From IMG/VR virus record IMGVR_UViG_3300020576_005736: DNA of 64,000 nucleotides; one strand, 5' to 3'. Each line of letters starts with the position of its first letter. Within the stretch, counting starts at the first letter, position 1. Under the pieces are notes generated by a model. It was not told where the DNA came from. It was given only the letters and a program-made list of their open reading frames with translations, and did no database searches. Shown in pieces: positions 28,792 through 54,299 of the stretch. The position numbers and the translations under genes are program-made. The stretch comes from an uncultured virus (IMG/VR IMGVR_UViG_3300020576_005736) (Duplodnaviria > Heunggongvirae > Uroviricota > Caudoviricetes).

Positions 28792-29493
28792 GTGGTAGCG
28801 ATTGTTGTAACCAGAGCAGGAAAGGGTGACGTATTCTCCTTCAAGACTGTCTTGCTGGCGGATAATCATCCAATCACTCAGTTCGGCGATCCTATCATGA
28901 CTGGCGTCGCTCATCTTCGACAGTGTCTGACCATGGCAGAGTGTGCAGCTGTGGCAGTCAAGATCGGAGAGTCCACTCTCGCAAGAGAGATTCGGGAATG
29001 TCCTAAGGAGTACAAGTCAGCGGTCGACAGACTCATGACTTCTCTGTGGGACAAGCTCGAGCGGTCAGCTTCTGCACCTCCAGCAGATCCTGCTGAAGTT
29101 ATGCGGAAGATAACTGGCGATCGCATCGCTACCCGATCCACGGGAATCCACATCAGACCCAGAGGAGATTTTGAAATGTCCGAACAAGCCACTGCCGAAG
29201 CCAACCAGGGCCACGAAGCTGAAGCCGCCGTCGCGACGGAAGCTGCCGAGAAGAAGCATCGTCCGATCCCGAAGGATCCGAAGTATGCCGACACTGGCGT
29301 GATCACCCTGCTGGCCGACAAGGACGGCAAGCAGTACAGTGCGGAGCACAATCCGAAGAAGCCCGGCTCGGCTTCTCACGAGCGCTTCAGCAAATACGTC
29401 GACGGCATGACCGTCAAGGCTGCGAAGGAAGCTGGTCTTCTGAACGGCGACCTCGACAACGACGTCAAGAAGGGCTACATCTCGATCGCCTGA
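28792..29493 (+). CDS. NPKKPGS-domain protein (probable second in-frame start at 29176)
   Basis: C-terminal HNPKKPGSASHERFSKY..GMTV...DLDNDVKKGYI; AGAGGAG RBS before ATG 29176. Confidence 0.7.
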   Translation: MVAIVVTRAGKGDVFSFKTVLLADNHPITQFGDPIMTGVAHLRQCLTMAECAAVAVKIGESTLAREIRECPKEYKSAVDRLMTSLWDKLERSASAPPADPAEVMRKITGDRIATRSTGIHIRPRGDFEMSEQATAEANQGHEAEAAVATEAAEKKHRPIPKDPKYADTGVITLLADKDGKQYSAEHNPKKPGSASHERFSKYVDGMTVKAAKEAGLLNGDLDNDVKKGYISIA

Positions 29494-29745
29494 CGCCTCG
29501 GCGTCGACGTCGGATGGCGTCACCTGCAATGACCTGGCTGCGGAGTCGGCCTACGTCGAAAGTGGTGAGACTGGGCAGGCTCTGCCCACCGATTTCGAGT
29601 CACCTGCGCTGCTATACTGTCCCGTCAGTTGTGCAAAAGTGGTGAGCTAGAGCGCTGCTCTCTCCTCCTGGCGGCGGAGTGGGTGGTCTCCATACCTCCC
29701 TGTGGAGACCACCCTGCCGCCCCAAGCGCCCGCCAGGAGCTTCAC

Positions 29746-30759
29746 ATGCAACAGATCAAGAACTTCTTTGCGTATGCCACAGAGCGTCACGCAATCTATC
29801 TTCGCAGACAGATGGGCATCCCCAAGTCTGAGCTGACCGAAGATCCCATTCTTCAGACCTATCGATTCTGCAATGTTTTCCGTGAGCTGGACACGACGAC
29901 CATCTGGCTGAGAAAGCACGTCCGTGATCCACTTCGTGACAAGCCAGAGGTTCTTCTGGCCACTGTTCTGTTTCGCTGGTTCAATCGCATCCAGACAGGA
30001 GAGGCGATCTTTAAGCAGACTTATCATGTTGGATCAAGCGTGTCCAACTGGACAGCATGGGATCAGCTTCTTGAGATCGGTGAAGTCAGTGACATTCGTC
30101 ATTCTGTTCTGGCATATTGCGGAAAGGGTCCGTATGTCACTGGATCCTACATCATCAAGACACCTGACGGAAAGAACAAGCTCGATGGTGTTCTCTGGTG
30201 CGTCGAGCAGTTCATGAAGCTCGAGAAGACCATTGGTCGACTTGACTCTGATGCTGACGCCAACGATCTAGACTGGCGCGAGGTTGCTCGAGTGTGCCTC
30301 GAGCATCCAGGAACTGTCTCACTGGAAACGGTGTGGGACTGGCTGCGTCAGTTCCCGTATCTGGGTGACTTCATGGCTTACGAGATCGTCACTGATCTTC
30401 GCCACACGGTTCTTCTCGACAGAGCTCCTGACATCATGACCTGGGCCAATCCTGGTCCTGGAGCCATGCGTGGTCTGAACCGAATTTACGGTCGTGATCT
30501 CGACAAGAAGCTGCAGAAGCATGTCTACATTAGAGAGATGCAGGATCTGCTGAAGTATGCGAGTGTCTCTGCACTGTGGCCTCAGTGGAACGGTCAGGCA
30601 TACATATTCTCGGATCGCGTTCCGGGAGATATGGATGCTTGGCAGCCAGAGGCATGGCCTGAGTGGGACATGCGAACTGTCGAGCACACTCTCTGTGAGT
30701 TCGACAAGTATGAGCGAGTTCGACTCGGTCAGGGCGCTCCGCGTCAGAAGTTCAGGTAG
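29746..30759 (+). CDS. 5-hmdU DNA kinase (aGPT-Pplase1 family)
   Basis: ERHAIYLRR..G.P...TEDPILQTYRFCNVFRELD, LFRWFN, LGDFMAYEIVTDL, GPGA.RGL, EHTLCEFDKY.R. Confidence 0.85.
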   Translation: MQQIKNFFAYATERHAIYLRRQMGIPKSELTEDPILQTYRFCNVFRELDTTTIWLRKHVRDPLRDKPEVLLATVLFRWFNRIQTGEAIFKQTYHVGSSVSNWTAWDQLLEIGEVSDIRHSVLAYCGKGPYVTGSYIIKTPDGKNKLDGVLWCVEQFMKLEKTIGRLDSDADANDLDWREVARVCLEHPGTVSLETVWDWLRQFPYLGDFMAYEIVTDLRHTVLLDRAPDIMTWANPGPGAMRGLNRIYGRDLDKKLQKHVYIREMQDLLKYASVSALWPQWNGQAYIFSDRVPGDMDAWQPEAWPEWDMRTVEHTLCEFDKYERVRLGQGAPRQKFR

Positions 30760-30770
30760 AGGAGAGAAGA

Positions 30771-31100
30771 ATGTTCGACTATAAGACATATGCAGATCAC
30801 AATGGACGAAATCCGTCGCACGTTCCTGGTGGATACACTCGTCATATTGAGGTTCCGATCGATCCGAAGAACCTACTTCTGGGAACCCGTCGGGTCTACG
30901 TTCGTCCCCGGAACCCCTCTCGCTGGCTTCCTCACGTTGGAGGCTCTCTCGCTGGTCCTCGGATCAATCCTCCTGTCGCAGAGATCGTGACTCGTCAGCA
31001 GCGTCGATATGCTGAGCGTATGGAGGCTGAGCGTCTTCGTCGCGAGGAGAACGCCCGAGTTCACTCTGCTCATCGCAGATCTCGTCGGAGGGCAGCATGA
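30771..31100 (+). CDS. hypothetical protein
   Basis: GAGGAG RBS, ATGA overlap with the next gene. Confidence 0.6.
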   Translation: MFDYKTYADHNGRNPSHVPGGYTRHIEVPIDPKNLLLGTRRVYVRPRNPSRWLPHVGGSLAGPRINPPVAEIVTRQQRRYAERMEAERLRREENARVHSAHRRSRRRAA

Positions 31101-31561
31101 GTGTTCTCAGCGGAAAGTCTCTCTGGAAGATTCGACCTCTTGAACCTATGGTCGAGAGGCAGAGGCACGAGTTGACCGGAACCAGCTTCGGCGTCTCGAT
31201 GTGTGGATACGACATTCGACTGGACCAGGAGATTGTTCTTCCTCCAGGTCGCACCGTTCTGGCTTCCACTCTCGAGAAGTTCACGATGCCTCTGGACGTC
31301 GTCGGCATCGTCCACGACAAGAGCACATGGGCACGTCGCGGCATCTCTGTGCAGAACACCGTGATCGAGCCAGGATGGTCAGGCTACCTGACTCTTGAGC
31401 TTCTCTACTCCCCGCTCCGGGTTCTCGCGACTGACGGGATGAGGCTGTCGAGAGGTACGCCCATCGCTCAGGTTCTGTTTCATCGCGTTGATGAAGAGAC
31501 TGAGGGCTACGGTGACGGCAAGTACGCGAATCAAGAAAGAGGTCCACAGGAGGCAAGATGA
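31097..31561 (+). CDS. dcd: dCTP deaminase/dUTPase family
   Basis: GYDIRL, KSTWARRG, IEPGWSGYLTLEL, IAQ, Y.GKY..Q. Confidence 0.85.
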   Translation: MSVLSGKSLWKIRPLEPMVERQRHELTGTSFGVSMCGYDIRLDQEIVLPPGRTVLASTLEKFTMPLDVVGIVHDKSTWARRGISVQNTVIEPGWSGYLTLELLYSPLRVLATDGMRLSRGTPIAQVLFHRVDEETEGYGDGKYANQERGPQEAR

Positions 31562-32007
31562 TGGGTCGGCGGGTCGCGCTCATCGGAATGAACAATCCTC
31601 TGTCGCGCGATCCGGCCAAGGCTCTCTGGCCTGATCCTGTGAACTGTACTGGGTGGCGAATCTGGCAGATGCTCGCATCTCGCACAGGTGCCACCCAGAC
31701 TGACTATCTGAGGACATTCCATCGATACAACCTCGGTCAGGAGAAGTTCTTTCACTCTGAGAATGCCAGAGAGTACTGGATGGAGATAGAGGACGATCTT
31801 GTTGCTAATTTCGACACAGTCGTCCTACTTGGGACAGCCGTCAAAAAAGCGGCGGGCGTATTACTCCCGCCCCTATACGTCTCCAGAACTCTCGTCACTA
31901 TTCCTCACCCATCAGGACTTAATCGCTGGTACAACAGCGAGGTTAACAGAAAGATGGTTGAGGTAATCCTCGAAGAGTTGTACGTTGAGGCGATAAGCTC
32001 GACCTAG
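31558..32007 (+). CDS. uracil-DNA glycosylase-like fold protein
   Basis: ALIGMNNP, TG.RI, VVLLG..V, IPHPSGLNRWYN. Confidence 0.65.
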   Translation: MMGRRVALIGMNNPLSRDPAKALWPDPVNCTGWRIWQMLASRTGATQTDYLRTFHRYNLGQEKFFHSENAREYWMEIEDDLVANFDTVVLLGTAVKKAAGVLLPPLYVSRTLVTIPHPSGLNRWYNSEVNRKMVEVILEELYVEAISST

Positions 32008-32009
32008 GC

Positions 32010-32038
32010 TTTACGTCGAGGGGCTGGCCGGTTATGCT
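32010..32038 (+). promoter_or_regulatory. TTTACG-N17-TATGCT promoter
   Basis: TTTAC promoter family; precedes the modification operon. Confidence 0.6.
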
Positions 32039-32044
32039 ATTTGC

Positions 32045-32662
32045 ATGATAATCGTCTGGCTTCCTTATCCAAATCTTCGACTGTCGGTCCACGTTCTGGA
32101 CTCACAGATTCTTGGTGTGCAGATATCACAGTGTCTGCATATTCTCAGCATGATCGCTGGTCACAGAGAGGGAGGACGAAACAAGTATCACTCGACCACT
32201 CTGTCCTGGCATCACAATCCGTCAGCACTTGCACTCTACACAGAGTATGCTCTCCAAGAGATGTCGCTGCGTGGTCAGGACAGAGGACTTCCCTCTCCCC
32301 GTTCTCGTGAGGGAAGAAAGCTGTATGACTTTCCAGCAGAGTGGGCCGAAGAGGATCCGCTGATGCCTGAGTGGCTGGGACTTGAGAGAATTCATGCTTC
32401 TCACCGTGCTGCTCTGCTGAAGAAGGATATCGGGTGGTACTCTCAGTTTGCGTGGCACGAGACTCCTGTCCTCAATCTTCAGTGGCCAGGGAAGATGCCA
32501 AGAGTTGGTGACTCAGTAGTGAGTAAGACCGGGGAGGTGTGTATCGTACACTCTTTCGACAGTAGCCGAAGGCCAGTTCTCGTCCAGAAGGGCGAGCTGG
32601 TTCCTGTTGATCGAGTTGCGGTGTACAGTGGAGAATGGCGCCGATGCGTCGTTGTTGAATAA
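32045..32662 (+). CDS. pyrimidine-dimer glycosylase-like (MSMEG_6728-type) protein, divergent
   Basis: WLPYP...S..VLD..LG.Q, P.WLG...IHASHRAALL.KD...Y. Confidence 0.65.
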   Translation: MIIVWLPYPNLRLSVHVLDSQILGVQISQCLHILSMIAGHREGGRNKYHSTTLSWHHNPSALALYTEYALQEMSLRGQDRGLPSPRSREGRKLYDFPAEWAEEDPLMPEWLGLERIHASHRAALLKKDIGWYSQFAWHETPVLNLQWPGKMPRVGDSVVSKTGEVCIVHSFDSSRRPVLVQKGELVPVDRVAVYSGEWRRCVVVE

Positions 32663-32674
32663 GAGGAGAGAGAC

Positions 32675-33724
32675 ATGCAAACGATCTACGCACGAAATGT
32701 GAACGTCGCCTATCGGGCAGGGCTGCGACTTCTGAAGAATCACGGTGTTGTGTCACCTTCTCGAGCAGGTAACGTGCTCGTCATGGACACGCCAGTGATG
32801 ACTGTCTACGCCTGTCCGCAGGAGCGTGTTCTGTTTGACGCATCGCGCGACGCCAATCCGTTCTTCCACGTGATGGAGTCTGTCTGGATGCTGGCTGGCT
32901 CCAAGGATGGAACCTGGCTGGACCGATACGTGTCCAACTTCTCCTCGCGATTTGCAGAGACAGGTGGTGACATTCACGGTGCCTATGGGTTCCGCTGGCG
33001 TAGCCACTTTGATCTCGAGGGTGGTGGAGATGAGCTTCTTCCTGACCAGATCCTGACCGTCGGCAAGATGCTGTTCGAGGACTTCAATACTCGGCGTGCT
33101 GTTCTCACCATGTGGGATCCTGTGGCCGATCTCGGAGTCAATACCAAGGACATGCCTTGCAACACTCACGTCTACTTTCGTGGTCGCATGATCGATGACG
33201 GTCGTCGTGTTCTCGACATCACTGTGTGCAATCGCTCAAACGATGCTATCTGGGGTGCGTACGGAGCGAATGCTGTACACATGTCCGTTATGGGCGAGGT
33301 AGTCGCAGGTCTGGCTGGTGTCGAGATCGGTCTGTACTACCAGATGAGCAACAACTTCCATGCGTACACTGAAGTCTTCGACAAGATCATCTCAAAGCCT
33401 ATTGAGTCTGTCGATGACTACGCGACGACCACCTCTCTCCCGATTATCGTTGGGGATACACCGGAGGCTCGCCGAAATTGTGCTCTCCAGATTCTCGCTG
33501 ACGCAGCGAAGTTCATTGAACTTCGTGATATCTCTCACGTTACTCGTGGACAGTTCGAGACTCAGTGGTTCAACGAGGTCGTTCTTCCGATGTCTCGTGC
33601 ACACGATCTCTGGAAGAGAGGATCTCGAGAAGATGCCATGGATGACGTTCGGTGGGTTCGCTCTCCTGACTGGCAGCGTGCCTGTCTTGAGTGGATGGGT
33701 CGTCGAATGAAGAAGGCTATCTGA
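32675..33724 (+). CDS. thymidylate synthase homologue, probable dUMP hydroxymethylase
   Basis: RDANPFFH, GAYG.RWR, TRRAVL.MWDP, D.PCN, NRSND..WG..GAN, NFHAY; next to the hmdU kinase. Confidence 0.85.
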   Translation: MQTIYARNVNVAYRAGLRLLKNHGVVSPSRAGNVLVMDTPVMTVYACPQERVLFDASRDANPFFHVMESVWMLAGSKDGTWLDRYVSNFSSRFAETGGDIHGAYGFRWRSHFDLEGGGDELLPDQILTVGKMLFEDFNTRRAVLTMWDPVADLGVNTKDMPCNTHVYFRGRMIDDGRRVLDITVCNRSNDAIWGAYGANAVHMSVMGEVVAGLAGVEIGLYYQMSNNFHAYTEVFDKIISKPIESVDDYATTTSLPIIVGDTPEARRNCALQILADAAKFIELRDISHVTRGQFETQWFNEVVLPMSRAHDLWKRGSREDAMDDVRWVRSPDWQRACLEWMGRRMKKAI

Positions 33725-33762
33725 CATGAGCCTCGCAATCAGAGACGACGCCCGTCTGGCCG
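33721..33762 (+). repeat. 42-bp direct repeat (copy 2 at 34398-34439)
   Basis: CTGACATGAGCCTCGC(A/G)ATCAGAGACGACGCCCGTCTGGCCG. Confidence 0.9.
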
Positions 33763-33782
33763 CGCCATAGCGTCGAATTTGA

Positions 33783-34130
33783 ATGGAAAAAGAGGATAAA
33801 ATGATCACGACCACACTCAACCGCATCCGCGAACATTGCCCCAGCGACAAAATGTGGACCAAGCTTCTTAAACACCTCGGCAAAACCAAGCCAGACGATG
33901 ACCCGCTGCCCTACGTCGTTATCGTCGAGAGCAACGGCCTTGAAGACGCTCTTTGGTGCTGCCGAGCCGAGCCGGAGCATTCGCGGGAGTGGCGACTGTT
34001 CGCCGTCTGGTGCGCCAGACAGGTGCGGCATTTGATGACTGACCAGCGGTCGCTTGACGCTCTGGATATTGCAGAGCGACACGCGAACGGCGAGGCTCAG
34101 CGTGTCAAATTTCTGGAGGTGGTGGGATGA
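33783..34130 (+). CDS. inserted hypothetical phage protein (possibly truncated)
   Basis: TTLNRIREH.P...W.KLL..LGKT..DD.PL...SNGL.DALW; codon style differs from the flanks. Confidence 0.6.
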   Translation: MEKEDKMITTTLNRIREHCPSDKMWTKLLKHLGKTKPDDDPLPYVVIVESNGLEDALWCCRAEPEHSREWRLFAVWCARQVRHLMTDQRSLDALDIAERHANGEAQRVKFLEVVG

Positions 34131-34345
34131 CTGACAATCCAGAAAACCCCTTCGCATTCCCCGTGCCGCTCACATTTCAGGATGGAGGCATGACCCTGCG
34201 AGACTATTTCGCGGCCCATGTCGCACAAGGCATGGCCGCGTTTAGCGGAACGTCAGGAACCAGTTACGGGCCCCACGAAATCGCCGGGCGCTCGTATCAG
34301 ATAGCCGACGCCATGCTCATCCAGCGGGAGACGCGCGATGATTGA
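34127..34345 (+). CDS. inserted small phage protein (GMTLRDYFAA family)
   Basis: AFP...GMTLRDYFAA...Y.IADAML..R. Confidence 0.7.
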   Translation: MTDNPENPFAFPVPLTFQDGGMTLRDYFAAHVAQGMAAFSGTSGTSYGPHEIAGRSYQIADAMLIQRETRDD

Positions 34346-34402
34346 TTGGCGCGACGATCTGCGCATCGACGTCATCCGACCCGAGAGCAGAGGTGGCCTG
34401 AC

Positions 34403-34936
34403 ATGAGCCTCGCGATCAGAGACGACGCCCGTCTGGCCGGGGAGGTGATTCGCTATCACACCTGGCCTCATACTCGCCAGCAGTCTGTGGGAGAGCACTC
34501 CTGGCAGGTCTGCCGCATTCTCATGTCTATCGCTCCTGCACCCTACTGGGTCAAACTTCTGCCTCACACTGTCACGCACGACATCGGTGAGATTGGTACA
34601 GGAGACGTGCCCTATCCCGTCAAGGCGAACAATCCTGAGCTCGGCAGGCTCTTCGATGAGCTCGAGCATGAGACCGTCGAGGAGTTGTGCGACAAGTGGG
34701 GTCTTCCCTCACCTGTCACGCTCACTCCTCAGGAGCGGTGGGTATTCAAGCTGGCAGAGTTCATCGAGATGTGGGAGTGGGGTCTCGAGGAGCTGCAGCG
34801 AGGAAATCAGTTTGCCCGTAAGGTCGCTGACAGATGTCGTGAAGTTATCAGCAAGATGCTTGCTGGTAGTCAGGATGAGTCAGTGGCGATCCTGGCATCG
34901 GAGTACATCGAGACAAGAGAGGAGATCTGGAAATGA
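34403..34936 (+). CDS. HD-domain nucleotidase (YfbR-like)
   Basis: V.RYHT, QSVGEHS, HD..E..TGD.P. Confidence 0.8.
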   Translation: MSLAIRDDARLAGEVIRYHTWPHTRQQSVGEHSWQVCRILMSIAPAPYWVKLLPHTVTHDIGEIGTGDVPYPVKANNPELGRLFDELEHETVEELCDKWGLPSPVTLTPQERWVFKLAEFIEMWEWGLEELQRGNQFARKVADRCREVISKMLAGSQDESVAILASEYIETREEIWK

Positions 34937-35463
34937 CTACAAATGCTAACCGACGTCAGATTGGCGGTACTCACTACAAGACAGGAAGTGGATTCGAGCA
35001 CTGGGATCTCATCTCTCAGTTCGGCATCGGATATCTTGAGGGATGCGCAACGAAGTATGTTGCCAGAGCTCGCCTCAAGAACGGTCGTCAGGATCTTGAC
35101 AAAGCTGTTCACTTCGTCGAGAAACTCATCGAGCTGGCTCGTCTTGGCGATATCCCTGTTCCTCCTATGGGTCATGCCAGTGATGCAAGTCTCTGGAACT
35201 TTGCATCGGCCCAGCAGCTGACCGGTCTGGAGTCTTCGATCATCACGTCTCTGTGCCAGTGGAGAACTGTCTCTGATCTTGAGAACGTCCTGAAGCTCCT
35301 GAACACACTGGTCTCTAACATGACGCTCCAGGAGCGCGAGGCTGAGAAGAAGGATCCATTTCGAGAATCAGCTCGAGTCTGGCCCGACTATTCTCCAAGA
35401 CCAGGAACACCAGAGGACGGCGGACACTACGCTCGTCAGCAAGAAGAGGATGACGGAGCATGA
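34933..35463 (+). CDS. DUF3310-like (nucleotide kinase-associated) protein
   Basis: QIGGTHYK, EG.ATKY..R...KNG.QDL.KA. Confidence 0.75.
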   Translation: MTTNANRRQIGGTHYKTGSGFEHWDLISQFGIGYLEGCATKYVARARLKNGRQDLDKAVHFVEKLIELARLGDIPVPPMGHASDASLWNFASAQQLTGLESSIITSLCQWRTVSDLENVLKLLNTLVSNMTLQEREAEKKDPFRESARVWPDYSPRPGTPEDGGHYARQQEEDDGA

Positions 35464-36287
35464 TCCCGCGTATCTATGTCCCATCACGTGGTCGCGCTGA
35501 CGATCGTCTGCTGCGCGGCCCATCTGTTCAGGCTCCTCATGGTACTGACGTCGTCTACGTCGTTGGTCCAGACGAGATCGCCAAGTACTCAGTCGCCATC
35601 CTGAGGAACGGTCTCCCCGCTCGTGTCGTCTCCTGCGAGCACCAGCCGAATATCTCAGCTGTTCGCTGGTGGATTGGCCTTCATGCTCAGAAGGACGGTC
35701 TCGACAGGTTCGTCATCATGGACGACGATGTCGGTCTTCTGGTCCGAAAGGCCGACGACAACTGGCAACTTCGAGGAGCAGAGAAGGACGACGTGCAGCA
35801 GATGCTGCAGTGGATGTGGTCTGAGCTTGACAGAAGCCAGAATGTTGGCATCTCTCCTCGTGAGGGAAATAATCGGGTCGGCGTCGGCAACTCCGCAGAA
35901 CTGACTCAGTACAATACTCGTGCAATGAGAGTGCAGGGCTTCCAGACGGAGGCCTTCCTTGCATGCGAGCACGGCCGAGTTCGAGTTATGGAGGACTTCG
36001 ACATCTCTCTGCAGATTCTCGCTGCTGGAGGGCAGATTGCCGTCAACTACTTCTGGGCTCAGGGTCAGAGAATGACAAATGAGTCTGGAGGATGCTCCGA
36101 GTGGCGAACTCACGAGATCCACGAGGCCTCTGCACGAAGACTAGCTGAGCTTCATCCTGGAATTGTCACTCTCCGTCAGAAGAGCAACAAGACAGACAAG
36201 GATGGATTCGGCACTCGTACTGAGGTCACTATCCAGTGGAAGCGTGCCTATCTGGAGGGTCAGAAGCATGCAAAACCAGCGGGATAG
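35460..36287 (+). CDS. GT-A fold glycosyltransferase, TET/JBP-associated (TAGT/GREB1-like) type
   Basis: IYVPSRGR, FVIMDDD, EDFD..LQ.L..G, N.SGGC motifs; inside the modification operon. Confidence 0.7.
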   Translation: MIPRIYVPSRGRADDRLLRGPSVQAPHGTDVVYVVGPDEIAKYSVAILRNGLPARVVSCEHQPNISAVRWWIGLHAQKDGLDRFVIMDDDVGLLVRKADDNWQLRGAEKDDVQQMLQWMWSELDRSQNVGISPREGNNRVGVGNSAELTQYNTRAMRVQGFQTEAFLACEHGRVRVMEDFDISLQILAAGGQIAVNYFWAQGQRMTNESGGCSEWRTHEIHEASARRLAELHPGIVTLRQKSNKTDKDGFGTRTEVTIQWKRAYLEGQKHAKPAG

Positions 36288-36486
36288 AGAGCTGAACTCA
36301 GCAGTTGAGTTCATCTGTCGCAACAGCAGTAGCTCTCTGGCTCGCAATGATCTCATACGGCAGGTGATTCGCTGTCACGTAGGTCGAGACTATCAGAATC
36401 GTCTCCTGACGGCTAGTGTTCGTCAGGAGATAGAGTCAAGATGTAAGACGATTGCTCGTCAGTTCGCCGCCAGAGGATTTATGTGA
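36268..36486 (+). CDS. hypothetical protein
   Basis: GGAGG RBS, overlapping operon structure. Confidence 0.5.
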   Translation: MQNQRDRELNSAVEFICRNSSSSLARNDLIRQVIRCHVGRDYQNRLLTASVRQEIESRCKTIARQFAARGFM

Positions 36487-36968
36487 TGCATGTCAGGTAT
36501 AATAGGTGGACTACTACCGACATTGACGCATTACTGGACTCTATTCCTGTCACGGGAGGAGTCTACGTTGACGAATCATGGTGCCAGATTGTACCAGAAG
36601 ACTCTGTTCTTTGGGCATTTGGCTATCCAAAGATTCACATGGGTGGGAGGACTATTCGGCTAAATCGTTATTCCCTGGAAAGAAAACTTGGTAGGAACAT
36701 CTATTCTGGTATGCACGCTCTTCATAAGTGTGATAATCGAGCATGTGTGGCTCAGAATCATCTATACGAGGGAACAAATCTCTCGAATGTACAAGATAAG
36801 ATGGACAAGGGTCACTCTAATCTCAAATTGAACATTAACAAGGTTCGATGTATTCGTAGACTCTACTCTCTCAACTACACATGTCAGAGAATAGCAGACG
36901 TGTTCACAGTTTCTCCACAGGTAGTGAGCGGAATTGTTAGAAGAGCATCTTGGAGGTACGTAGAATGA
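36486..36968 (+). CDS. HNH homing endonuclease
   Basis: LHKCDNRACV..NHL..GT...N. Confidence 0.8.
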   Translation: MHVRYNRWTTTDIDALLDSIPVTGGVYVDESWCQIVPEDSVLWAFGYPKIHMGGRTIRLNRYSLERKLGRNIYSGMHALHKCDNRACVAQNHLYEGTNLSNVQDKMDKGHSNLKLNINKVRCIRRLYSLNYTCQRIADVFTVSPQVVSGIVRRASWRYVE

Positions 36969-45100: not shown

Positions 45101-45117
45101 ATGTCTTCTCCTGGCAG

Positions 45118-46414: not shown

Positions 46415-46424
46415 GACCAGATCC

Positions 46425-47000
46425 TCACGGTATGTCGACTACAATGTAGCCCTTCTTGACATCATGAACGATGTCGCCTGCCAGGCCTCCGAGAGCAAGA
46501 TACTCGCTCACGCTCATGCCGACCTTGTACAGCTTGAACCGATCGTAGGACTTGGTGTTGGGAATCTTGGGATTGCGCTCGACTAGCTGAACTATCACAC
46601 GCGGATCGTGCTTGCGCTGGTACTGCACTCTGGCGGCGATGCGCTTCGGAAGTCCCCCGGTCCCTGCCGGCTGACCTCGACGATGCCCTATTGGGAGAGG
46701 AAGCGGTCGTCCCTCAATATCCGTGAGGGGTATGCCAGTCTCTCCTCGGGCACACAGATAGATGGGCTTCTCGAGAAGACAGCACAGAATGTCGCACCAG
46801 AAGGTCTCGGTCCGGGTTGCCATGGTCATGACGACCTCTGCGTGGGACAGATGCTGGCACTTCTGAGCCAGAGTCTCTCCAGTGGCTATCCGGGGGTCTG
46901 GCGGTTCCGGAACCAGTCGAGAGTTGTACAGATGGTCCCAGAGCGCCAGCGTCTGTACTCTTGAAAGTCTCTTGTATAGATCTGTATGTTGTTGAATCAT
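46425..47000 (-). CDS. NPKKPGS-domain protein
   Basis: C-terminal RNPKIPNTKSYDRFKLY..GMSV.E...DIVHDVKKGYI. Confidence 0.65.
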   Translation of the reverse strand: MIQQHTDLYKRLSRVQTLALWDHLYNSRLVPEPPDPRIATGETLAQKCQHLSHAEVVMTMATRTETFWCDILCCLLEKPIYLCARGETGIPLTDIEGRPLPLPIGHRRGQPAGTGGLPKRIAARVQYQRKHDPRVIVQLVERNPKIPNTKSYDRFKLYKVGMSVSEYLALGGLAGDIVHDVKKGYIVVDIP

Positions 47001-47289
47001 TGAGGAAGCCCCGATATCCGAGACTGAATTCGCTGCCGACTCAGTTCTACGGTTTGAGTTGAAGGATAGTGGTTGCTACGCAGACTGAGTAGGGGAGAGA
47101 GTGTCTCTCCTCTCTTATTAGTTCACTTCTTGCTCTTAAGGCAGGAGCAGGGCTGAGACGTCCAGCCCTCCAGAGCTCTTACACACCAGAACGCTCGAGG
47201 TCCGTAAGACTCAGGAGGATCCAGCAACTTACCACGGGGCACGAATTTCGTCTTTGCGCTGTGGCAAGTCTTGTTGAGACGCTTGTCTG

Positions 47290-47865
47290 TCACTCACTCT
47301 TCTCCTCAGTGGTGGATTCCGAAGCGGTAGTCTCGGGAAGCGGACCGAGGCAGATGTAGCCGTGATCACGATCCCAGTGCAGAGTGGACAGGGCCAGCTT
47401 GCGACTGTAGCCCGCATCCACCATGGCCTTGACGAAACTCTCGCCAGTCGCAACCGACTCAGCCTCGACGTCTCCGACCACCTTCTCGTAGATCACGAAC
47501 GTGTCGAACGCTCGCGAGCCAGGGCGCTTCGGATTGTTCGAGACCAGGAGGTGCAGCTGCGCCGAGAGATCCAGCGTAGTGGCACCGACACGAGGAGCAC
47601 CCTCCTCGGCAGGAGTCTTGGCAGCCGAGGGCTTCTCGGTCCCCCACACGAGAGACTCGTCCTCACCCTCGCGCAGAACGGCATGACCGTGCATCTGCAA
47701 GAGCTCATCTCGAGCCTTCTCCAGTCTCGCAACACCAGTCTTGGCGTCACGGAACTTCTTCACGAAGTCCTCCTCAGATCGACCGAGAAGGGGCTGTGCA
47801 GCATTATACGCAGCCGTCAGCTGGGCCATGGTCAGGCTCGTGAAGTCATCAACAGTATTCGGCAT
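47290..47865 (-). CDS. NPKKPGS-domain protein (divergent)
   Basis: NNPKRPGSRAFDTF..Y...LHWDRDHGYI; GAGGAG RBS. Confidence 0.7.
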   Translation of the reverse strand: MPNTVDDFTSLTMAQLTAAYNAAQPLLGRSEEDFVKKFRDAKTGVARLEKARDELLQMHGHAVLREGEDESLVWGTEKPSAAKTPAEEGAPRVGATTLDLSAQLHLLVSNNPKRPGSRAFDTFVIYEKVVGDVEAESVATGESFVKAMVDAGYSRKLALSTLHWDRDHGYICLGPLPETTASESTTEEKSE

Positions 47866-47966
47866 CTTACTCTCCTCTGTTAGCCGCCACTGGGTTGAGA
47901 CGGGTTTTCGCTGGCGGCGATATCAGGGTTGCGCGATACTCAGACTAGCGCAACCCTAATAGACGT

Positions 47967-47994
47967 ATGATACTCCAACTGGACAGGGTGTAAA
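47967..47994 (-). promoter_or_regulatory. TTTACA-N16-TATCAT promoter
   Basis: TTTAC promoter family. Confidence 0.5.
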
Positions 47995-48030
47995 GCCCCT
48001 ACGGCGTGCAACACCCTATCTATTTTTGCA

Positions 48031-48648
48031 TCAGGACTCGATCTGCTGAGCCGCCCACTCCTCGAGAGTGACGACTTTGATGAAGCCCTTGCCGAGATCG
48101 TACTGGACGTCGGCCTTGGTGCCGCCAGCCTTGATGAACTCAGCGATAGACTGGCCGACAGTGTAGAGCGCATAGCGCTGAAAAGCGGCGGACGAGGGCT
48201 TCTTGGGATTCGGGGCTACGAAGGAGATGATGCGAGGATCGTCAGGAGACGGAGCCGGACCCTTGGTCCCAGGCTCGTAGGTCACCTTCTCCTTCTTCGG
48301 ACCGTGGGAACGAGAGCCGTTCGGACGAATGTGAGGACCAGCCTGCTTGTCAGGTCGACCAGTCGGCTCGGGATAGTTGCGAGTCAGAGGTTGAGACATG
48401 AGAATCTCTAGAATCTTGGGATCCAGAGTATCCCCGCATGCCACGACCACGTCGACGTGAGCGACATCCTGGAGATGCTCGGCGAGCTTCTCAGCATCGG
48501 GCTCCTCACTGTCGAGGATGTCCGGAACCAGTCCGGCCTCATGACACGCATTCCAGAGAGTAGCCACCTGCTCCTCGTCCATCTGCGAGAGATACTTGGT
48601 GTAGAGAAGTTCATTCTCGGTGTTGGCGGCGGTATTGTTGTCAGACAT
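48031..48648 (-). CDS. NPKKPGS-domain protein
   Basis: PNPKKPSSAAFQRYALY..GQSI.E...DVQYDLGKGFI; GAGGA RBS. Confidence 0.75.
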   Translation of the reverse strand: MSDNNTAANTENELLYTKYLSQMDEEQVATLWNACHEAGLVPDILDSEEPDAEKLAEHLQDVAHVDVVVACGDTLDPKILEILMSQPLTRNYPEPTGRPDKQAGPHIRPNGSRSHGPKKEKVTYEPGTKGPAPSPDDPRIISFVAPNPKKPSSAAFQRYALYTVGQSIAEFIKAGGTKADVQYDLGKGFIKVVTLEEWAAQQIES

Positions 48649-48669
48649 AGTTGCTCATTCCTCTTTGGT

Positions 48670-48731
48670 GCCCTGACTCATCAGTGCCGGGTGGGCGTAT
48701 CCGGCAGACAGGCCGAGTGGCCTGTTTCGTC
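48670..48731 (-). ncRNA. type II hammerhead ribozyme
   Basis: Minus strand GAC-GAAAC-AGGCC(ACTC)GGCCT-GTC^TGCCGG(ATACGCCCAC)CCGGCA-CTGATGA-GTC-AGGGC: intact core, three stems, possible loop-I/3'-tail GCCC:GGGC pseudoknot. Confidence 0.88.
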
Positions 48732-48755
48732 TCACTCCCACTCCCACTCGTAGTC

Positions 48756-49358
48756 TCACTCCCACTCCCACTTGTAGTCTCGCTCCTGAAGCGTGACCTT
48801 GCGGATCCGAACGTAGTCCGGAATTAGAAGACCGAGTTCCCGAGCCTCGACTCGAAGATCTCTGAGCCTGTTATCGATCTGCTCAGGATCGTCTGTCAGA
48901 GCTTCCTCGAGAAGGTGGGTGACCTTGATACTTCCACCTCCTGAGGCAGAGCACGTGGCCGAGGTGTTCCTGTAGGACAGATAGACGGTCCTGTCTGCAC
49001 CCTCAGGAGACATGATGACCACATAGGCCACAGCGTCTGAGTCCATGCGAGGAGCCTCGTCGGCGACGGGTGCCGGGGAGGTGGCTGTCGTCCGCTCCTC
49101 GTCCATGTTCACGAGACGAAAGAGCTGCCCTCCGTACATGTCTCCGTCACGAATGACGTTGATGGTGTCTCCGTCGATGACGATGGTGTGACCGACTGTG
49201 TTGTACTGAACATCGTCCGCGATGAGAGGATCCTTGGACTCGCATCCCTGGAAGGCGTCCCAGTCAGTTTCCGTGAACTCACGGAAACTGGAGAGAGCGA
49301 TCTTTCGCAGAAGTCCCAGAGCAGTCACGCTCGTCCTGATGTCAATTGGCGATCCCAT
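48756..49358 (-). CDS. hypothetical protein
   Basis: AGGAGGAG RBS before ATG 49358. Confidence 0.6.
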   Translation of the reverse strand: MGSPIDIRTSVTALGLLRKIALSSFREFTETDWDAFQGCESKDPLIADDVQYNTVGHTIVIDGDTINVIRDGDMYGGQLFRLVNMDEERTTATSPAPVADEAPRMDSDAVAYVVIMSPEGADRTVYLSYRNTSATCSASGGGSIKVTHLLEEALTDDPEQIDNRLRDLRVEARELGLLIPDYVRIRKVTLQERDYKWEWE

Positions 49359-49806
49359 GAATCTCCTCCTTCTTGATGTAGTATCTCGGGAACTGGACTG
49401 ACTCGAGACGAGAGATGGTAGTCTCGAGAGTTGTGGTGAACGTCTCCTCCTCGGGAGGAAGCAGCCTTCCCATGTCACATCGTCGGTGCACGTGGTCCAG
49501 AACTGCTCGAAGCGCGTAGCTCACGTTGTCTCGACGGTCGCGGCGCGCCGCGCCGCGCTTACGCCCGGAGGCGTAATGCTGGAACTTTAGCACATCGTCG
49601 GCATCGACCGAGAGAGGCTCTGGGATCCTGAGACTGTCCAGCTCGTCAGCTACATTTCTGAGCAACTGCACGCGAGCCATACCATTCAGGCGAGTATCTC
49701 CCCGGTCCGTCACCCCTCGTATGTCGGACACGAGAGACTGGAGTTCCGACCGGGCAATTGCAAGAGCCTCTCGGACTGACGTCCTGTAGGTCTTGACAGG
49801 CATCAC
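49342..49806 (-). CDS. hypothetical protein
   Basis: Overlapping operon gene with AGGAG RBS. Confidence 0.6.
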   Translation of the reverse strand: MMPVKTYRTSVREALAIARSELQSLVSDIRGVTDRGDTRLNGMARVQLLRNVADELDSLRIPEPLSVDADDVLKFQHYASGRKRGAARRDRRDNVSYALRAVLDHVHRRCDMGRLLPPEEETFTTTLETTISRLESVQFPRYYIKKEEIHGIAN

Positions 49807-50123
49807 ATGTCTCCTTCCTTGGCGGAGTAGAGCAGGAGGACAAAGTCCGCTGCAGGGTCCTGCCCGTTCATGATCTCCATGGAGTCAGAGAAGGCAGGAA
49901 GCATACAGGGCGACCGACCATCGCACCACTTCTTGACCTCGTCAGCGATGCTGAACTTCATAGACTTGATCTGGAGGTATCGCTCGATGTTGTCGAGCAT
50001 GGGGCGAGTCATCGGACCGCCAGAGAGGCTCGGACCTCTCGACTCGATCCCACCCTCACGAAGAGCCGTCGTGACTCCAAGGAAGAGGTTGGGATGGGAA
50101 CTCTGATCGTACATAATGTTCAT
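49803..50123 (-). CDS. hypothetical protein
   Basis: GAGGAG RBS downstream of a TTTACT promoter. Confidence 0.6.
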   Translation of the reverse strand: MNIMYDQSSHPNLFLGVTTALREGGIESRGPSLSGGPMTRPMLDNIERYLQIKSMKFSIADEVKKWCDGRSPCMLPAFSDSMEIMNGQDPAADFVLLLYSAKEGDM

Positions 50124-50154
50124 GGCATCTCCTCGCCGTTCTACCTATACCCTA

Positions 50155-50183
50155 ATACTACGCTATCTGCAGGGCGTAGTAAA
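50155..50183 (-). promoter_or_regulatory. TTTACT-N17-TAGTAT promoter
   Basis: Near-identical to the copy at 51960-51988. Confidence 0.7.
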
Positions 50184-50186
50184 GGG

Positions 50187-50459
50187 CTAAATTTGCATCA
50201 TGTCCAGATGATTGACCAGCGGAAGGAACGGACGAGGCATCTCGAGAAATGCACGAAGCTCCGGAAGAGCTCCGTCAGGACTCCTCATGACCAGCTCGGT
50301 GACCTCAGAGGAGGAGACGAACTCCTCATTCTTCGGAGCTCCAGGCCCAATCTGATGAACACGAGTCCAGCCGCCAGGCTGATCAGGAGTTCTGCGGATC
50401 TCGATCCGTCCCATGTACATGGTCTTCTGATAGACCACAGCGTCCTTCTTCTTAGACAT
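50187..50459 (-). CDS. hypothetical protein
   Basis: GAGGAG RBS. Confidence 0.55.
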   Translation of the reverse strand: MSKKKDAVVYQKTMYMGRIEIRRTPDQPGGWTRVHQIGPGAPKNEEFVSSSEVTELVMRSPDGALPELRAFLEMPRPFLPLVNHLDMMQI

Positions 50460-50673
50460 CTTTGACTCCTCTCTGGATGCTGAGAACGACGCGGGTTTTG
50501 TAGTCAGAAGCTGAGTTCTCCTGGAAGATCTTCGTTCCCTCAACACAAAGGTTCAGGAAGACCTGAGGATCAAGAGCCACAACCTTGTGCTTATGATGAT
50601 TGACTGCCAGCCACAGCTGGTAACCATCGAAAGACAGGTAGACTCCATCTCCAATATGAGTGGATTTCACCAT
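50452..50673 (-). CDS. small conserved phage protein
   Basis: HIGDGVY.SFDGYQLWL...VALDP.V motif. Confidence 0.65.
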   Translation of the reverse strand: MVKSTHIGDGVYLSFDGYQLWLAVNHHKHKVVALDPQVFLNLCVEGTKIFQENSASDYKTRVVLSIQRGVKDV

Positions 50674-50897
50674 TTCTGGTCTCCTGTCTTCGAGCCGACG
50701 GCCCAGCGATTGTCGGTCCACACTGCGAAGAAGTAAGCCTTGAGCTCCTCCGACACAGTGAAGTACGAGCGAACGTGGTCGGGGAGTTCGTGCTCCTGGA
50801 CCTGAGTTGTGTGCTTCCGCTTCTCGTCGTAGATGAGGAAGGGAGCGTTGACCGGAAAGAGCGGTCGCTGAATCTTGACGATCTGATCAGTCATCAC
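50667..50897 (-). CDS. hypothetical protein
   Basis: IVKIQRPL...LIYD...KAYF.A motif. Confidence 0.55.
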   Translation of the reverse strand: MMTDQIVKIQRPLFPVNAPFLIYDEKRKHTTQVQEHELPDHVRSYFTVSEELKAYFFAVWTDNRWAVGSKTGDQKW

Positions 50898-51399
50898 ACG
50901 CTCCAGAAGTCACGACAGGCACTGCGGAACTCCAGAGAGTTTCTCTCCCAGATCTGTCGGCGCATCTCATCGAGAGACTCCTGTCTAGCAGTGAGGACAT
51001 CATCAGTGAGAACATCACACTGCTCGTCTGCACTCAGAGCATCTGAGCACGTCTGGTAGATCTCAGCACAGACGTCCAGAGAGACAGAGTCCTCAGAGGT
51101 CAGGAACTCTCGGATCTTCTCGTCCTCCACGTGGTCCCATGGACCCATAGTCCACTCAACCGACGGCCAGTAGACGATGACTCCGAGCCCCATGCTGTCT
51201 GCGTGCGAGTCCCGTATCATATCTGACAGCTGGTCAACATCGAGATTCGAGCACCTGACCATCCGAGAGATGATCTCGTTCTGCCCGGGACCGTCAACGC
51301 CCACACAGGAGCGTCCGTACATTCCTCGTCCGGAGTAGGACCGAGGTCTGAGTCCAACGCCTTCAGAGCGCGGACCAGAGTATCACAATCAATATTCAT
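50894..51399 (-). pseudogene. frameshifted hypothetical gene (RSYSGRGMYG..C motif)
   Basis: ATG 51399 frame and the downstream frame join with a 1-nt shift near 51363. Confidence 0.5.
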
Positions 51400-51465
51400 T
51401 CTTGCTTCTCCGCTTTGGGTGTCTCCCGAGGATCAGTCCTCGGGAGTGTCTCTCGGTGAGGAGGA

Positions 51466-51687
51466 TCAGTCCTCGTCGTCCTCATCTTCGTGATCGTTGA
51501 CCTCCTCGACCTCGTAGGCGGAGTCCTCCTCGTACCACTCAGCACCCTCGAAGATCTTGTGATGAGGATTGTCCTCGTCGGCTCCAGCCTCGACCATCTC
51601 CGTGGCCTTGTCCTCGTCCTCAGCCTCCACAGTGATCGTAGCGACATGGAGGACAGTGCGAGCAACCTTCACGTCAAACTTGGGCAT
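51466..51687 (-). CDS. small acidic hypothetical protein
   Basis: MPKFDVKV...ITVEAEDEDKA; GAGGAG RBS. Confidence 0.6.
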   Translation of the reverse strand: MPKFDVKVARTVLHVATITVEAEDEDKATEMVEAGADEDNPHHKIFEGAEWYEEDSAYEVEEVNDHEDEDDED

Positions 51688-51959
51688 CTTGCATCTCCTC
51701 GGTCCTGACTCGTCAGCGCCGGACGGACCAATCTCCTGGCGGACACGCTCACTGAGCGTGTTTCGTCTTCGCATGCTGATCGCCTACGGGAACCAGATCT
51801 CGGCAGTCGCTCAGGGGAGCGCGGCTCGGCAGGATCTTCGCGACAGCCCACCTCACTGTACCGATGACGACGGACAGCAGGACGAGCAACTCAACAACCT
51901 CAATGATAAGAGCAAGCATTCGGACCATGATAATCTCCTCTGGCGGCTTTATAAGTATA

Positions 51960-51988
51960 ATACTACGCTATCTGCGCGGCGTAGTAAA
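51960..51988 (-). promoter_or_regulatory. TTTACT-N17-TAGTAT promoter
   Basis: TTTAC promoter family. Confidence 0.7.
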
Positions 51989-52002
51989 GCTTCATTTTTG
52001 CA

Positions 52003-52221
52003 TCAGCCTCGCTTCCATGACCACGGACGAGGCGGACGCGACCACACATGAGTCTCGACTGCGCCCTGACGGAACTCAGCGTTCATGCGAGCAATGGCTG
52101 CATCGAGAGTCTCCTCCTCGGTCACAGTGACCCGTCCGTCCGACCAGTCAGTGACAACTGCGTGCTCAGCGATGTCGGGGAGGCGAGCGAGGCCGAGTCT
52201 CAGGCGGAACCATCTCAGCAT
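52003..52221 (-). CDS. hypothetical protein
   Basis: AGGAG RBS. Confidence 0.5.
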   Translation of the reverse strand: MLRWFRLRLGLARLPDIAEHAVVTDWSDGRVTVTEEETLDAAIARMNAEFRQGAVETHVWSRPPRPWSWKRG

Positions 52222-52230
52222 GGTGATCTC

Positions 52231-52371
52231 CTATCGGTAGAGTGAGTGATGACACACGTCGTATGAGTGAGTCTCGAGACACCGAGCCATCGCATCACGG
52301 TCGGACAGACCGGACAGACAGACCCAGACGATGAGGAGCAGCGCTCCTCCGAGCAGTATGCGATCGGTCAT
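52231..52371 (-). CDS. small secreted/membrane protein (46 aa)
   Basis: GGAGGAG RBS; MTDRILLGGALLLIVWVC... Confidence 0.45.
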   Translation of the reverse strand: MTDRILLGGALLLIVWVCLSGLSDRDAMARCLETHSYDVCHHSLYR

Positions 52372-52565
52372 CTCTTCTCCTCCGCTGAGAACCACAGGCA
52401 GTCCTCAGACTCACTGAACCACTGAACCACCTTCGGACGATACTTCTCATCGATCTTCAGATGAATCTCATTCGGGTTGTCCTGACGGACGTTCTCCGCA
52501 CGGATCTTTCGTTTAATGAGCTGAGCGTTCACCGCATGGGACGGTGCCTTCGCGATCACAAGCAT
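52368..52565 (-). CDS. hypothetical protein within a direct-repeat-bounded insert
   Basis: GAGGA RBS. Confidence 0.5.
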   Translation of the reverse strand: MLVIAKAPSHAVNAQLIKRKIRAENVRQDNPNEIHLKIDEKYRPKVVQWFSESEDCLWFSAEEKR

Positions 52566-52694
52566 GGTGTGGTTCCTCGTTAGCCTCAGCTCACCGTCGG
52601 GTGATCTGGTGCTGGTTGCTGCGCGTGGTGCGCCTTGGTCAGAGCATAATCGCTCACGGATAGGGCGGCGCTCGTCCGAGCAGTATGCGATCGG

Positions 52695-53015
52695 TCATTT
52701 CTCCACCTCCGCAGTACGACGCCAGACTCGAACACCAGGGGTCGGAGGGTGCTCCTTCCCGTCGTCAGTCCACGACTCGGTGGTCTGCTTCGTGATGAGG
52801 AAGTACAGGATCCTTCCGCTCTGCCGGAACTGTACTGCCCGGACGCTGATGCGTCGCTGGAGGACGGCAGGAGAACAGTTGTACGCTGACGCTGGTACGA
52901 AGAAGGAGTCGCCCTCTTCCAGTGCACAGATGACCTCCGACAGATCGGAGGTGCCCCGAGAGCCGGAGCTTCGACCAGTGGGTACAGGGATATTCTTCTG
53001 AATCGTGATGCTCAT
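52695..53015 (-). CDS. putative small DNA-binding protein
   Basis: IQKNIPVP...LEEGDSFFVP...GVRVWR motif. Confidence 0.6.
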   Translation of the reverse strand: MSITIQKNIPVPTGRSSGSRGTSDLSEVICALEEGDSFFVPASAYNCSPAVLQRRISVRAVQFRQSGRILYFLITKQTTESWTDDGKEHPPTPGVRVWRRTAEVEK

Positions 53016-53428
53016 GACAGACCTCCTGAGAAGATGAACGTGGTGAGGGCACCCCCCTCCTGGAACCAACAGTCCGTGAAAGACACGATAGTGATGTCTT
53101 GGTACGAATACTTCACCATCTCCACAATGCAGCCAGTCTCCTTGTTCTCCCAGATCACCGTTTTGCTCGACTTCGGGGCCTCCGCGAAGATCGTCCGAAC
53201 CATCGCTCCGACCAGCCACCCCATCTCACGAAAGTCATCCTCCTCGCTCTCCGAGAAGAAGATAGCCGCTCTTCCAGGGAGTCTGCGTACAGTATCCTCC
53301 CACTGGTCCAGATCGAACTCCTTGCGGAACTCGGCCACGGACTGAGGAAGTCCGTCCGGAGATGCCATCTTGATCACCTCGTCTAGGGCATGGCTGAATG
53401 AGGGAAGAAGAACAGTTGCTTTGGTCAT
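53012..53428 (-). CDS. hypothetical protein
   Basis: First gene after the 53513 promoter (alternative start 53482). Confidence 0.55.
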   Translation of the reverse strand: MTKATVLLPSFSHALDEVIKMASPDGLPQSVAEFRKEFDLDQWEDTVRRLPGRAAIFFSESEEDDFREMGWLVGAMVRTIFAEAPKSSKTVIWENKETGCIVEMVKYSYQDITIVSFTDCWFQEGGALTTFIFSGGLS

Positions 53429-53512
53429 CACAGATTCTCCGAGCTCTTCTTGAGAATAACGTAGTTCATCAGTACCTCCCATAGTGCTAGTTAGCTATAC
53501 GCTAATAAACTT

Positions 53513-53541
53513 ATTATACGTATAGCCTAAACGCAAGTAAA
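53513..53541 (-). promoter_or_regulatory. TTTACT-N17-TATAAT promoter
   Basis: Consensus -10 with TTTACT -35. Confidence 0.75.
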
Positions 53542-53611
53542 GCGGTATTTTACGATGAGCGACCGGCGGAGCTCGCACGGAGCGACGAAAACCCCACCCG
53601 GACGAATCGGG

Positions 53612-53697
53612 CGGAGCGACGGACAAAGAGGACACGGAGCGACGGACAAAGAGGACACGGAGCGACGGACAAAGAGGACACGGAGCGACGGACAAAG
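53612..53697 (+). repeat. 23-bp tandem repeat x~3.7
   Basis: Unit CGGAGCGACGGACAAAGAGGACA, with no T on the + strand. Confidence 0.9.
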
Positions 53698-53712
53698 TAC
53701 CGACGCGCGAAA

Positions 53713-53740
53713 GCCGCCCTAGGGCAGACCCTAGGGCGGC
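53713..53740 (-). terminator. hairpin downstream of the 51-aa ORF
   Basis: GCCGCCCTAGGG-CAGA-CCCTAGGGCGGC, followed by TTT on the minus strand. Confidence 0.55.
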
Positions 53741-53759
53741 CAGCGGAGAGGATAGCGGA

Positions 53760-53915
53760 CTAGGCCAAGTAGCCGGCGGACCGAAGCCACGTAGCCGTAG
53801 CCGCAAGGCGACGCGCCCGAGCGGCGGCGCGGCGCGCAGGGACGGACGGACAAACGCGGACGGGCACACCGGCGCAAGCGAATACAAGGTAGCGGCGGAG
53901 AGCGGACTTAGACAT
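53760..53915 (-). CDS. 51-aa basic protein with no D/E/H/Q (not in ORF track)
   Basis: MSKSALRRYLVFACAGVPVRVCPSVPARRAAARARRLAATATWLRSAGYLA; same TAGGGGTTA-NNN-ATG RBS as the upstream gene. Confidence 0.6.
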   Translation of the reverse strand: MSKSALRRYLVFACAGVPVRVCPSVPARRAAARARRLAATATWLRSAGYLA

Positions 53916-53999
53916 AGATAACCCCTAAGAAAGAATAGGATATAAGCGGTAAAGCTAGGCGGGGTAGCCCGCCTAGCGCGTAGCGCGTAGCGCGTAGCG

Positions 54000-54299
54000 C
54001 TACCCTACCAAAAGGTAGCCCTTACGTATATCGTATAAAAAATCGGCCCGGTTAGCGCCGTTTTTTACCGCTAGCGCTTGGGCTAGCGTAAACGGGGCGG
54101 CGGGGTAAAGCGCGTAGCGCGCGTAGGCGGCGCTACCGGGTTTTTTGGGGTTAGGCGTAACCGCCGTTACGGTTACGGTTAGCGGCGCGCCGCCTACGTA
54201 GGCGGTAGGGTTACGCGGCGCTACCGCGTTAGCTACCGGCGGTAGCGTAGCGGCGGTAGGCGTAGCGGCGGTAGGCGTAGCGGCGGTAGCGTTAGGCAT
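54000..54299 (-). CDS. NPKKPGS-domain protein encoded almost without TG/TC/CA/GA
   Basis: PNPKKPGSAAYARYALY...ADFLYDIRKGYL; homology to four paralogues supports it being a real gene. Confidence 0.8.
   Translation of the reverse strand: MPNATAATPTAATPTAATLPPVANAVAPRNPTAYVGGAPLTVTVTAVTPNPKKPGSAAYARYALYPAAPFTLAQALAVKNGANRADFLYDIRKGYLLVG

Follow-up and report, generated by a model that had tools for sequence, protein, structure and literature searches.

Sections of the literature cited here describe several ways in which proteins deal with modified DNA bases. The J-DNA-binding domain of kinetoplastid JBP1, a variant of the helix-turn-helix (HTH), reads glucosylated hydroxymethyluracil and owes its specificity to one Asp of the recognition helix (PMC3141245), while T4 MotA accommodates glucosylated hydroxymethylcytosine and activates the host polymerase (PMC6755090). 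The small predicted modified-base readers RAMA and HARE-HTH occur joined to restriction enzymes in prokaryotic proteins and to PHD or other chromatin domains in eukaryotic ones (PMC4738411). As to thymine, TG and TC are the inferred targets of the kinase in phages M6, ViI and phiW-14 (PMC6449724), TET-associated glycosyltransferase (TAGT) is a likely DNA glucosyltransferase in T6-like phages (PMC13390438), and the chromosomes of dinoflagellates are rich in 5-hydroxymethyluracil (PMC11572971). Here we describe five paralogues of a domain of about 55 amino acids (aa), the NPKKPGS domain, in a stretch of 64,000 nucleotides (nt; the window) from an uncultured virus of the Caudoviricetes (IMG/VR IMGVR_UViG_3300020576_005736), the full record of which has 64,842 bp and carries virion and terminase genes. 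The domain is linked to modification enzymes both by genomic position and by fusion, and the gene of one paralogue lies in an island depleted of TG and TC.

ORF calls, alignment and profile search all confirmed the five open reading frames (ORFs) that a first-pass annotation of the window had credited with a common domain:

28792-29493 (+): paralogue 1, 233 aa; C-terminal domain, N-terminal family of its own, directly upstream of the 5-hydroxymethyldeoxyuridine (5-hmdU) kinase gene
46425-47000 (-): paralogue 2, 191 aa; its N-terminal helical region has a homologue in paralogue 4
47290-47865 (-): paralogue 3, 191 aa; N-terminal domain of ~45 aa common to JL001 gp18 and the DUF3489 proteins of M6-type phages
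48031-48648 (-): paralogue 4, 205 aa; domain by alignment, N-terminal helical region as in paralogue 2
48667-48732 (-): match to a type II hammerhead ribozyme just upstream of paralogue 4 (38.4 bits; gathering threshold 37)
54000-54299 (-): paralogue 5, 99 aa; made up of the domain and an Ala/Thr/Pro tail, gene recoded synonymously

The five align over ~55-60 aa, with N, P, K, P, Y, G, D and G invariant, and the other copies are 29-41% identical to the domain of paralogue 1. The domain spans are 29305-29490(+), 46431-46619(-), 47341-47580(-), which carries two insertions, 48067-48255(-) and 54003-54194(-). A profile search of the whole record returned exactly five copies, the next match having E=4.8; that profile was built from the five themselves, but the 46-row profile A2 returns the same five. 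The motif originally proposed, NPK(K/R)PGS, is literal in three of the five copies and reads NPKIPNT and NPKKPSS in the other two. The placing of one copy directly before the kinase gene, one behind a ribozyme and one within a recoded island was borne out. The statement that each N-terminus is unrelated was not, because paralogues 2 and 4 are homologous over their full length, with a helical N-terminal region of ~100 aa in common (BLAST 27% over 107 aa, E 1.3e-7; reciprocal profiles agree). Nor does this phage bear out the idea of adaptors that deliver a range of effector domains: no N-terminus of the five scored over cut-off in Pfam, PHROGs, NCBIfam or PADLOC, or matched an enzyme family. The N-termini are either small and helical or a disordered tail of Ala, Thr and Pro. 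Enzyme fusions were seen only in other genomes. A single-sequence model of paralogue 2 (pLDDT 43) was too poor for use.

The NPKKPGS domain appears to constitute a new, unnamed family; no model in the same four libraries matched it over cut-off. At E<=0.001 the 46-row profile gave 6,212 matches among 1.84 billion cluster representatives, of which the best 150 were inspected. Across 281 domain instances in 251 proteins, N, P, K, Y and the last D are conserved at 97-99% and the two Asp of a DxxxD motif at 86% and 98%; the domain ends within 30 aa of the C-terminus in 199 instances and carries a low net charge, about +2. Cultured phages seldom have it, with a single occurrence in 50,697 records (gp18 of the Alphaproteobacteria phage PhiJL001, here JL001) and no match in a second tblastn search against cultured phages, and GTDB genomes gave five matches to the strict domain pattern. 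Among 47 proteins chosen for length or context, the domain is fused to ADP-ribosyltransferase (9), GmrSD, GNAT, helicase, Pyr_excise and DUF2786/DUF7168, as well as to PHD (5, at least one of them under cut-off) and TAGT (2, under cut-off). A domain-TAGT fusion occurs in the dinoflagellate Biecheleria cincta (P0107; TAGT E 7.5e-6, just under cut-off), and a fusion to a 2OG-Fe oxygenase with HRD is a lead. Two further candidates were set aside: P0085 as a carrier of a kinase domain was an unsupported guess, and P0204 as a TET/JBP protein is a lead only (Atlas Tet_JBP 0.88; no match in Pfam or the PDB). In G036 and G041 (L107/L124), six domain copies lie within ~8 kb, one of them fused to a SprT-like protease. 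Pfam gave no match to RAMA, HARE-HTH, SRA or ASCH, four of the five proteins matching no family and the fifth only unrelated ones under cut-off; a match to the YcnI copper-binding domain was partial (31-40 columns only, E 0.006-0.02) and was rejected. Literature searches, limited in that the domain has no searchable name, turned up neither the domain nor islands of this kind; the available sections of PMC8989533 and PMC4520260 contain nothing on the domain, and PMC5977210 does not deal with promoters or transcription.

An AlphaFold model of the domain (pLDDT 79) has three short helices, with the wing strands unresolved. A VIA fold comparison gave 50 rows with a best Z of 4.2 and none at 5 or above, most of which we take to be winged-helix proteins (Fur/PerR/Zur, MarR, IclR, ZBP1, TFE, SelB). 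Foldseek returned nothing from the PDB at E<=0.001 and, from a viral library, JL001 gp18 only. The structural comparison proposed in the first-pass annotation thus gave a model that resembles a winged helix at weak Z and no PDB match, and the predicted fold is a minimal winged-helix-like one. Together with basic and aromatic conservation and fusions to DNA-acting enzymes, the model supports the suggestion made there of a DNA-binding module, and the domain very probably binds DNA. As to remote homology, hhalign of the domain against the DUF3489 type gave a probability of 40% (P 3e-4 over 30 columns, with a 5-sequence template; reversed control P 0.15), and none of the five proteins matched DUF3489 (PF11994) in Pfam at E<=0.1.

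The window holds a thymine-modification cluster that comprises HMUDK, dCTP deaminase, Pyr_excise-like, thymidylate synthase, HD nucleotidase, TAGT and PolA genes and resembles JL001 gp18-gp28:

29629-30759 (+): 5-hmdU DNA kinase (HMUDK_hel, PF18723; Pfam E 3.6e-43), likely start ATG at 29749
31097-31561 (+): dCTP deaminase-like protein (family-library match)
32045-32662 (+): Pyr_excise-like protein within the cluster (E 1.1e-8)
32675-33724 (+): thymidylate synthase homologue, likely a dUMP hydroxymethylase (family match; synteny with JL001 gp24, which is annotated as similar to SPO1 hydroxymethylase)
35460-36287 (+): TAGT (PF20691; E 5.7e-19)

On the strength of this gene cluster, the phage is predicted to hypermodify thymine; the two genes that mark a thymidine-hypermodifying phage, a thymidylate synthase homologue and a 5-hmdU kinase, are both encoded.

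Among records selected for the domain, the kinase was found in 22 of 34, and in nine of the ten near-complete ones (two loci were not searchable), the background rate being 100 of 50,697 cultured phage records. A second domain-selected set had the kinase in three of 12 viral genomes (two of four near-complete) and in none of five bacterial genomes. In all 22 records of the first set with both genes, the kinase is preceded by a domain copy on its own strand, at a distance of 23-2,744 bp. Starting from the kinase, 14 of 50 loci with enough flank have the domain upstream (one marginal) and none downstream or on the opposite strand; in a quick kinase tree, the domain-bearing loci fall into each of the two main clades. 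Of 48 kinase-selected records, 20 have the domain (eight as weak matches) and 20 have TAGT over cut-off: both occur in 18, each alone in two and neither in 26, so that TAGT is present in 18 of the 20 records with the domain vs two of the 28 without it. The association (Fisher p 4e-9; p 0.0015 with strong matches only; p 0.06 with near-complete and cultured records only) is inflated because records are related or near-identical (G001, G016-G022, G027/28 and the G068 clade, the latter with weak matches), and fragments are included too. TAGT is present in 22 of 29 domain records, including the kinase-less G037 and G040; of 14 near-complete domain records, ten have TAGT, three more have the kinase, and G025 has neither. 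A PF18746 search of five kinase-less records gave no match and is uninformative. M6, phiW8-1 and Epa5 encode the kinase and lack both TAGT and the domain, which makes TAGT a better correlate of the domain than the kinase alone. The co-occurrence with the kinase that the annotation had anticipated extends to modification genes more widely. In these three phages, DUF3489 replaces the domain behind the same N-terminal domain, that of the paralogue 3 type. As a separate observation, a 1,115-aa frame in the kinase-less phage G040 (L210:2719-6063) joins TAGT to a DNA polymerase-like part, 1.5 kb downstream of a domain gene.

Paralogue 5 is encoded in a region of unusual composition:

53513-53541 (-): sigma70-like promoter TTTACT-17-TATAAT heading the next leftward genes, within a 49-nt patch free of TG/TC on both strands (53486-53534)
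53608-53939 (-): zone in which only the + (template) strand is free of TG/TC (T then G/C: 0/16 on +, 60/98 on -)
53760-53915 (-): second small ORF (gene 2), 51 aa, by ORF call; template strand TG/TC-free, no Asp, Glu, Gln or His
53940-54606 (both strands): island depleted of TG/CA and TC/GA by dinucleotide counts, with AT-rich upstream region
54589-54606 (-): island-edge motif common to G002 and G032, candidate packaging-start site; contig breaks in two runs lie within ~15 nt of it
56272-58382 (+): terminase small and large subunit genes (family matches), divergent from the island gene

Within the island, T is followed by G or C at 11 of 165 positions on the + strand and 2 of 145 on the - strand, as against 72% genome-wide. 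The paralogue 5 gene has six such sites vs ~64 expected from its own protein and the codon usage of the genome (p<=0.0005 for each class), and the longest run with at most three sites is 366 nt vs a maximum of 50 in 30 simulations; paralogues 1-4 show no depletion in the same codon test. Its protein lacks Glu, His, Trp and Cys altogether and contains a single Gln and two Asp, and the only GA sites in the gene are the codons of these two conserved Asp. The island was recovered in contigs of three runs. In two of these the contigs end at its right edge; the breaks, at 54612-54621, coincide with a depth step, contig depth being weak evidence. In run X4, the contig of a relative has 703 other letters in place of 52678-54788, island included. 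The template-clean zone also contains three exact 23-nt tandem repeats (53612-53697), after a 12-bp hairpin (53713-53740); a reading of these repeats as a CsrA sponge was dropped, the repeats of relatives having no GGA pattern. Elsewhere, patches of 36-47 nt free of TG/TC on both strands occur at 10889, 15888, 15959, 22288, 22367, 41904, 43480, 43560, 54758 and 54841. They share GGCGGCGGG/TAGGG motifs, some within ORFs, and are candidate phage regulatory sites; such short clean patches number 18 in the record vs none in one simulation.

Depletion over a small domain gene was found in seven of 27 records scanned, this phage (G000) included, three of the seven having entered the scan because of an earlier dip. 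The islands differ in kind: those of G000, G002, G032 and G029 are depleted of TG and mostly of TC, those of G014 and G012 of TC/GA only (zero TC), and that of G055, a record reached through its kinase, chiefly of TG/CA. G003 and G006 have a dip only upstream of a domain copy, that of G031 is weak, and the remaining records scanned, JL001 and three M6-type phages among them, have none. The template-only depletion of gene 2 recurs in G002 and G032, and the GA sites retained in the island genes of G000, G014 and G012 include Asp codons of DxxxD. Wherever terminase genes were found, the islands adjoin them (G000, G002, G032, G014, G012); in G014 and G012, terL comes immediately after the island gene, and a terS would not fit between them.

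We propose that the domain binds sugar-decorated hydroxymethyluracil DNA and that the island copy is an immediate-early gene on DNA that cannot be modified. The kinase, thymidylate synthase homologue and TAGT genes would place bulky groups at TG and TC, and a naive host sigma70 polymerase would be hindered by the modified promoter and template. With its first transcription unit kept unmodifiable, the phage would have host RNA polymerase read the island gene first. The 99-aa reader-only product might then coat the modified DNA, either allowing modified genes to be transcribed or shielding them. Paralogues 1-4, in which a small helical domain is joined to the reader by a linker, a layout that we presume to be H-NS/Lsr2-like, could be structural or regulatory coats, and the copy ahead of the kinase may mark or recruit modification enzymes. 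A role in transcription is favoured because gene 2 is depleted on the template only and the promoter patch is clean. We lean slightly towards a domain that discriminates modified DNA, and would put the whole chain somewhat short of an even chance. Several observations weigh against it. Only 14 of the 50 kinase loci have the domain nearby; M6, phiW8-1 and Epa5 show that it is not required; G007, G011, G043, G058 and G081 have domain and kinase without TAGT; and the complete genome of G025 has two domain copies with neither enzyme. To these must be added the p of 0.06, the relatedness of the records, fold scores below Z 5, the empty PDB search and the prior selection of three island records. Nine records (JL001, G005, G007, G011, G013, G019, G030, G059 and G061) have no island, and in the island protein of G012 the domain is represented by its C-terminal half alone.

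Some of these points suit a general DNA-binding module, such as a nucleoid-type coat or transcription regulator, that is indifferent to base modification or that favours unmodified host DNA for shut-off, its link to modification being shared ancestry. The replacement by DUF3489 in M6-type phages, G025 and the phylogenetic linkage of the records all agree with this, and the eukaryotic PHD and GNAT fusions would fit any chromatin binder. We nevertheless regard it as rather unlikely in view of the directional adjacency (22 of 22, and 14 vs 0), the presence of the domain in both main kinase clades, TAGT adjacency in kinase-less G040, the TAGT fusion in a dinoflagellate and the repeated occurrence of the domain gene in islands. 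That the domain binds protein or RNA, such as host RNA polymerase, is very unlikely: several of the highest VIA rows are winged helices that serve in protein contacts, and the net charge is low, but the domain is also found in algal chromatin-type and DNA-modifying proteins, where the bacterial polymerase is absent.

Two other explanations concern the island itself, and both account better than our proposal for the clean sense strand of the island gene (gene 1), which template blockage alone does not explain. The island could be packaging-start or replication-origin DNA, with the small copy a packaging or initiation factor that overlaps it by chance; the neighbouring terminase genes, the missing space for terS in G014 and G012, the conserved edge motif, the contig breaks and the cleanness of both strands are all consistent with this. 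This phage has a terS of its own, though, and two features suggest transcription instead: gene 2, as in G002 and G032, is depleted on the template alone, and the promoter patch is clean. We consider such a packaging or origin role improbable. Alternatively, the island might enter first and escape type IV nucleases, its product masking modified bases elsewhere, by analogy with gene 0.3 of phage T7. Depletion on both strands over the whole gene, the fusion of the same domain to GmrSD and the position near a likely genome end accord with a shield of this kind, which we likewise think improbable, as nucleases leave the template-only depletion unexplained.

Other features of the record bear on none of these readings. 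Positions 1-6000 of the window (tail and lysis region) have ~65% GC vs ~53% elsewhere and a different codon pattern, and are possibly a recent acquisition; a low-GC ORF with the look of an HNH homing endonuclease (28175-28714) lies between the helicase and paralogue 1, and three tRNA genes lie at 24495-24726. TC is enriched (rho 1.39) and TA depleted (0.58) across the whole record, as in most relatives.

If our proposal holds, the island would offer a concrete first gene, and a testable sequence signature, for the start of host RNA polymerase on hypermodified phage DNA. A 55-aa reader of hydroxymethyluracil or its glycosylated form would be a mapping reagent and a candidate reader in dinoflagellates, and island composition would predict the kinase specificity of uncultured phages from sequence alone. 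The family itself has more than 6,000 clusters and no model in the four libraries searched. The widest version of the proposal, a new family of readers of base-J-like thymine modification, common to phages and dinoflagellates, plus a genome-bootstrapping island tuned to kinase specificity (TG+TC, TC, mainly TG), strikes us as doubtful.

Among known systems, PhiJL001 has the only cultured homologue found, gp18, directly upstream of kinase gp19 and with TAGT gp22 nearby, but in a single copy and without an island. The DUF3489 proteins of M6, phiW8-1 and Epa5 (two copies in each of the last two) have the same N-terminal domain and linker, stand upstream of the modification cluster and show weak profile similarity to the NPKKPGS domain; these phages differ in having no TAGT and no clear island, and the five proteins here do not match PF11994. 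As a reader, the domain would act much as the J-binding domain of JBP1 and T4 MotA do. T4 MotA differs in its double-wing fold, single copy and cytosine modification, and the available text on it describes no unmodifiable island. The fusion pattern is similar to that of RAMA and HARE-HTH, which concern adenine rather than thymine modification and have no Pfam match here. The J-binding domain of JBP1 is a helical bouquet of 160 aa, different in length, with no sequence or fold match to the phage domain and absent from the profile, Foldseek and VIA match lists; yet the phage domain likewise has a near-invariant Asp in its last helix, and its occurrence tracks that of TAGT.

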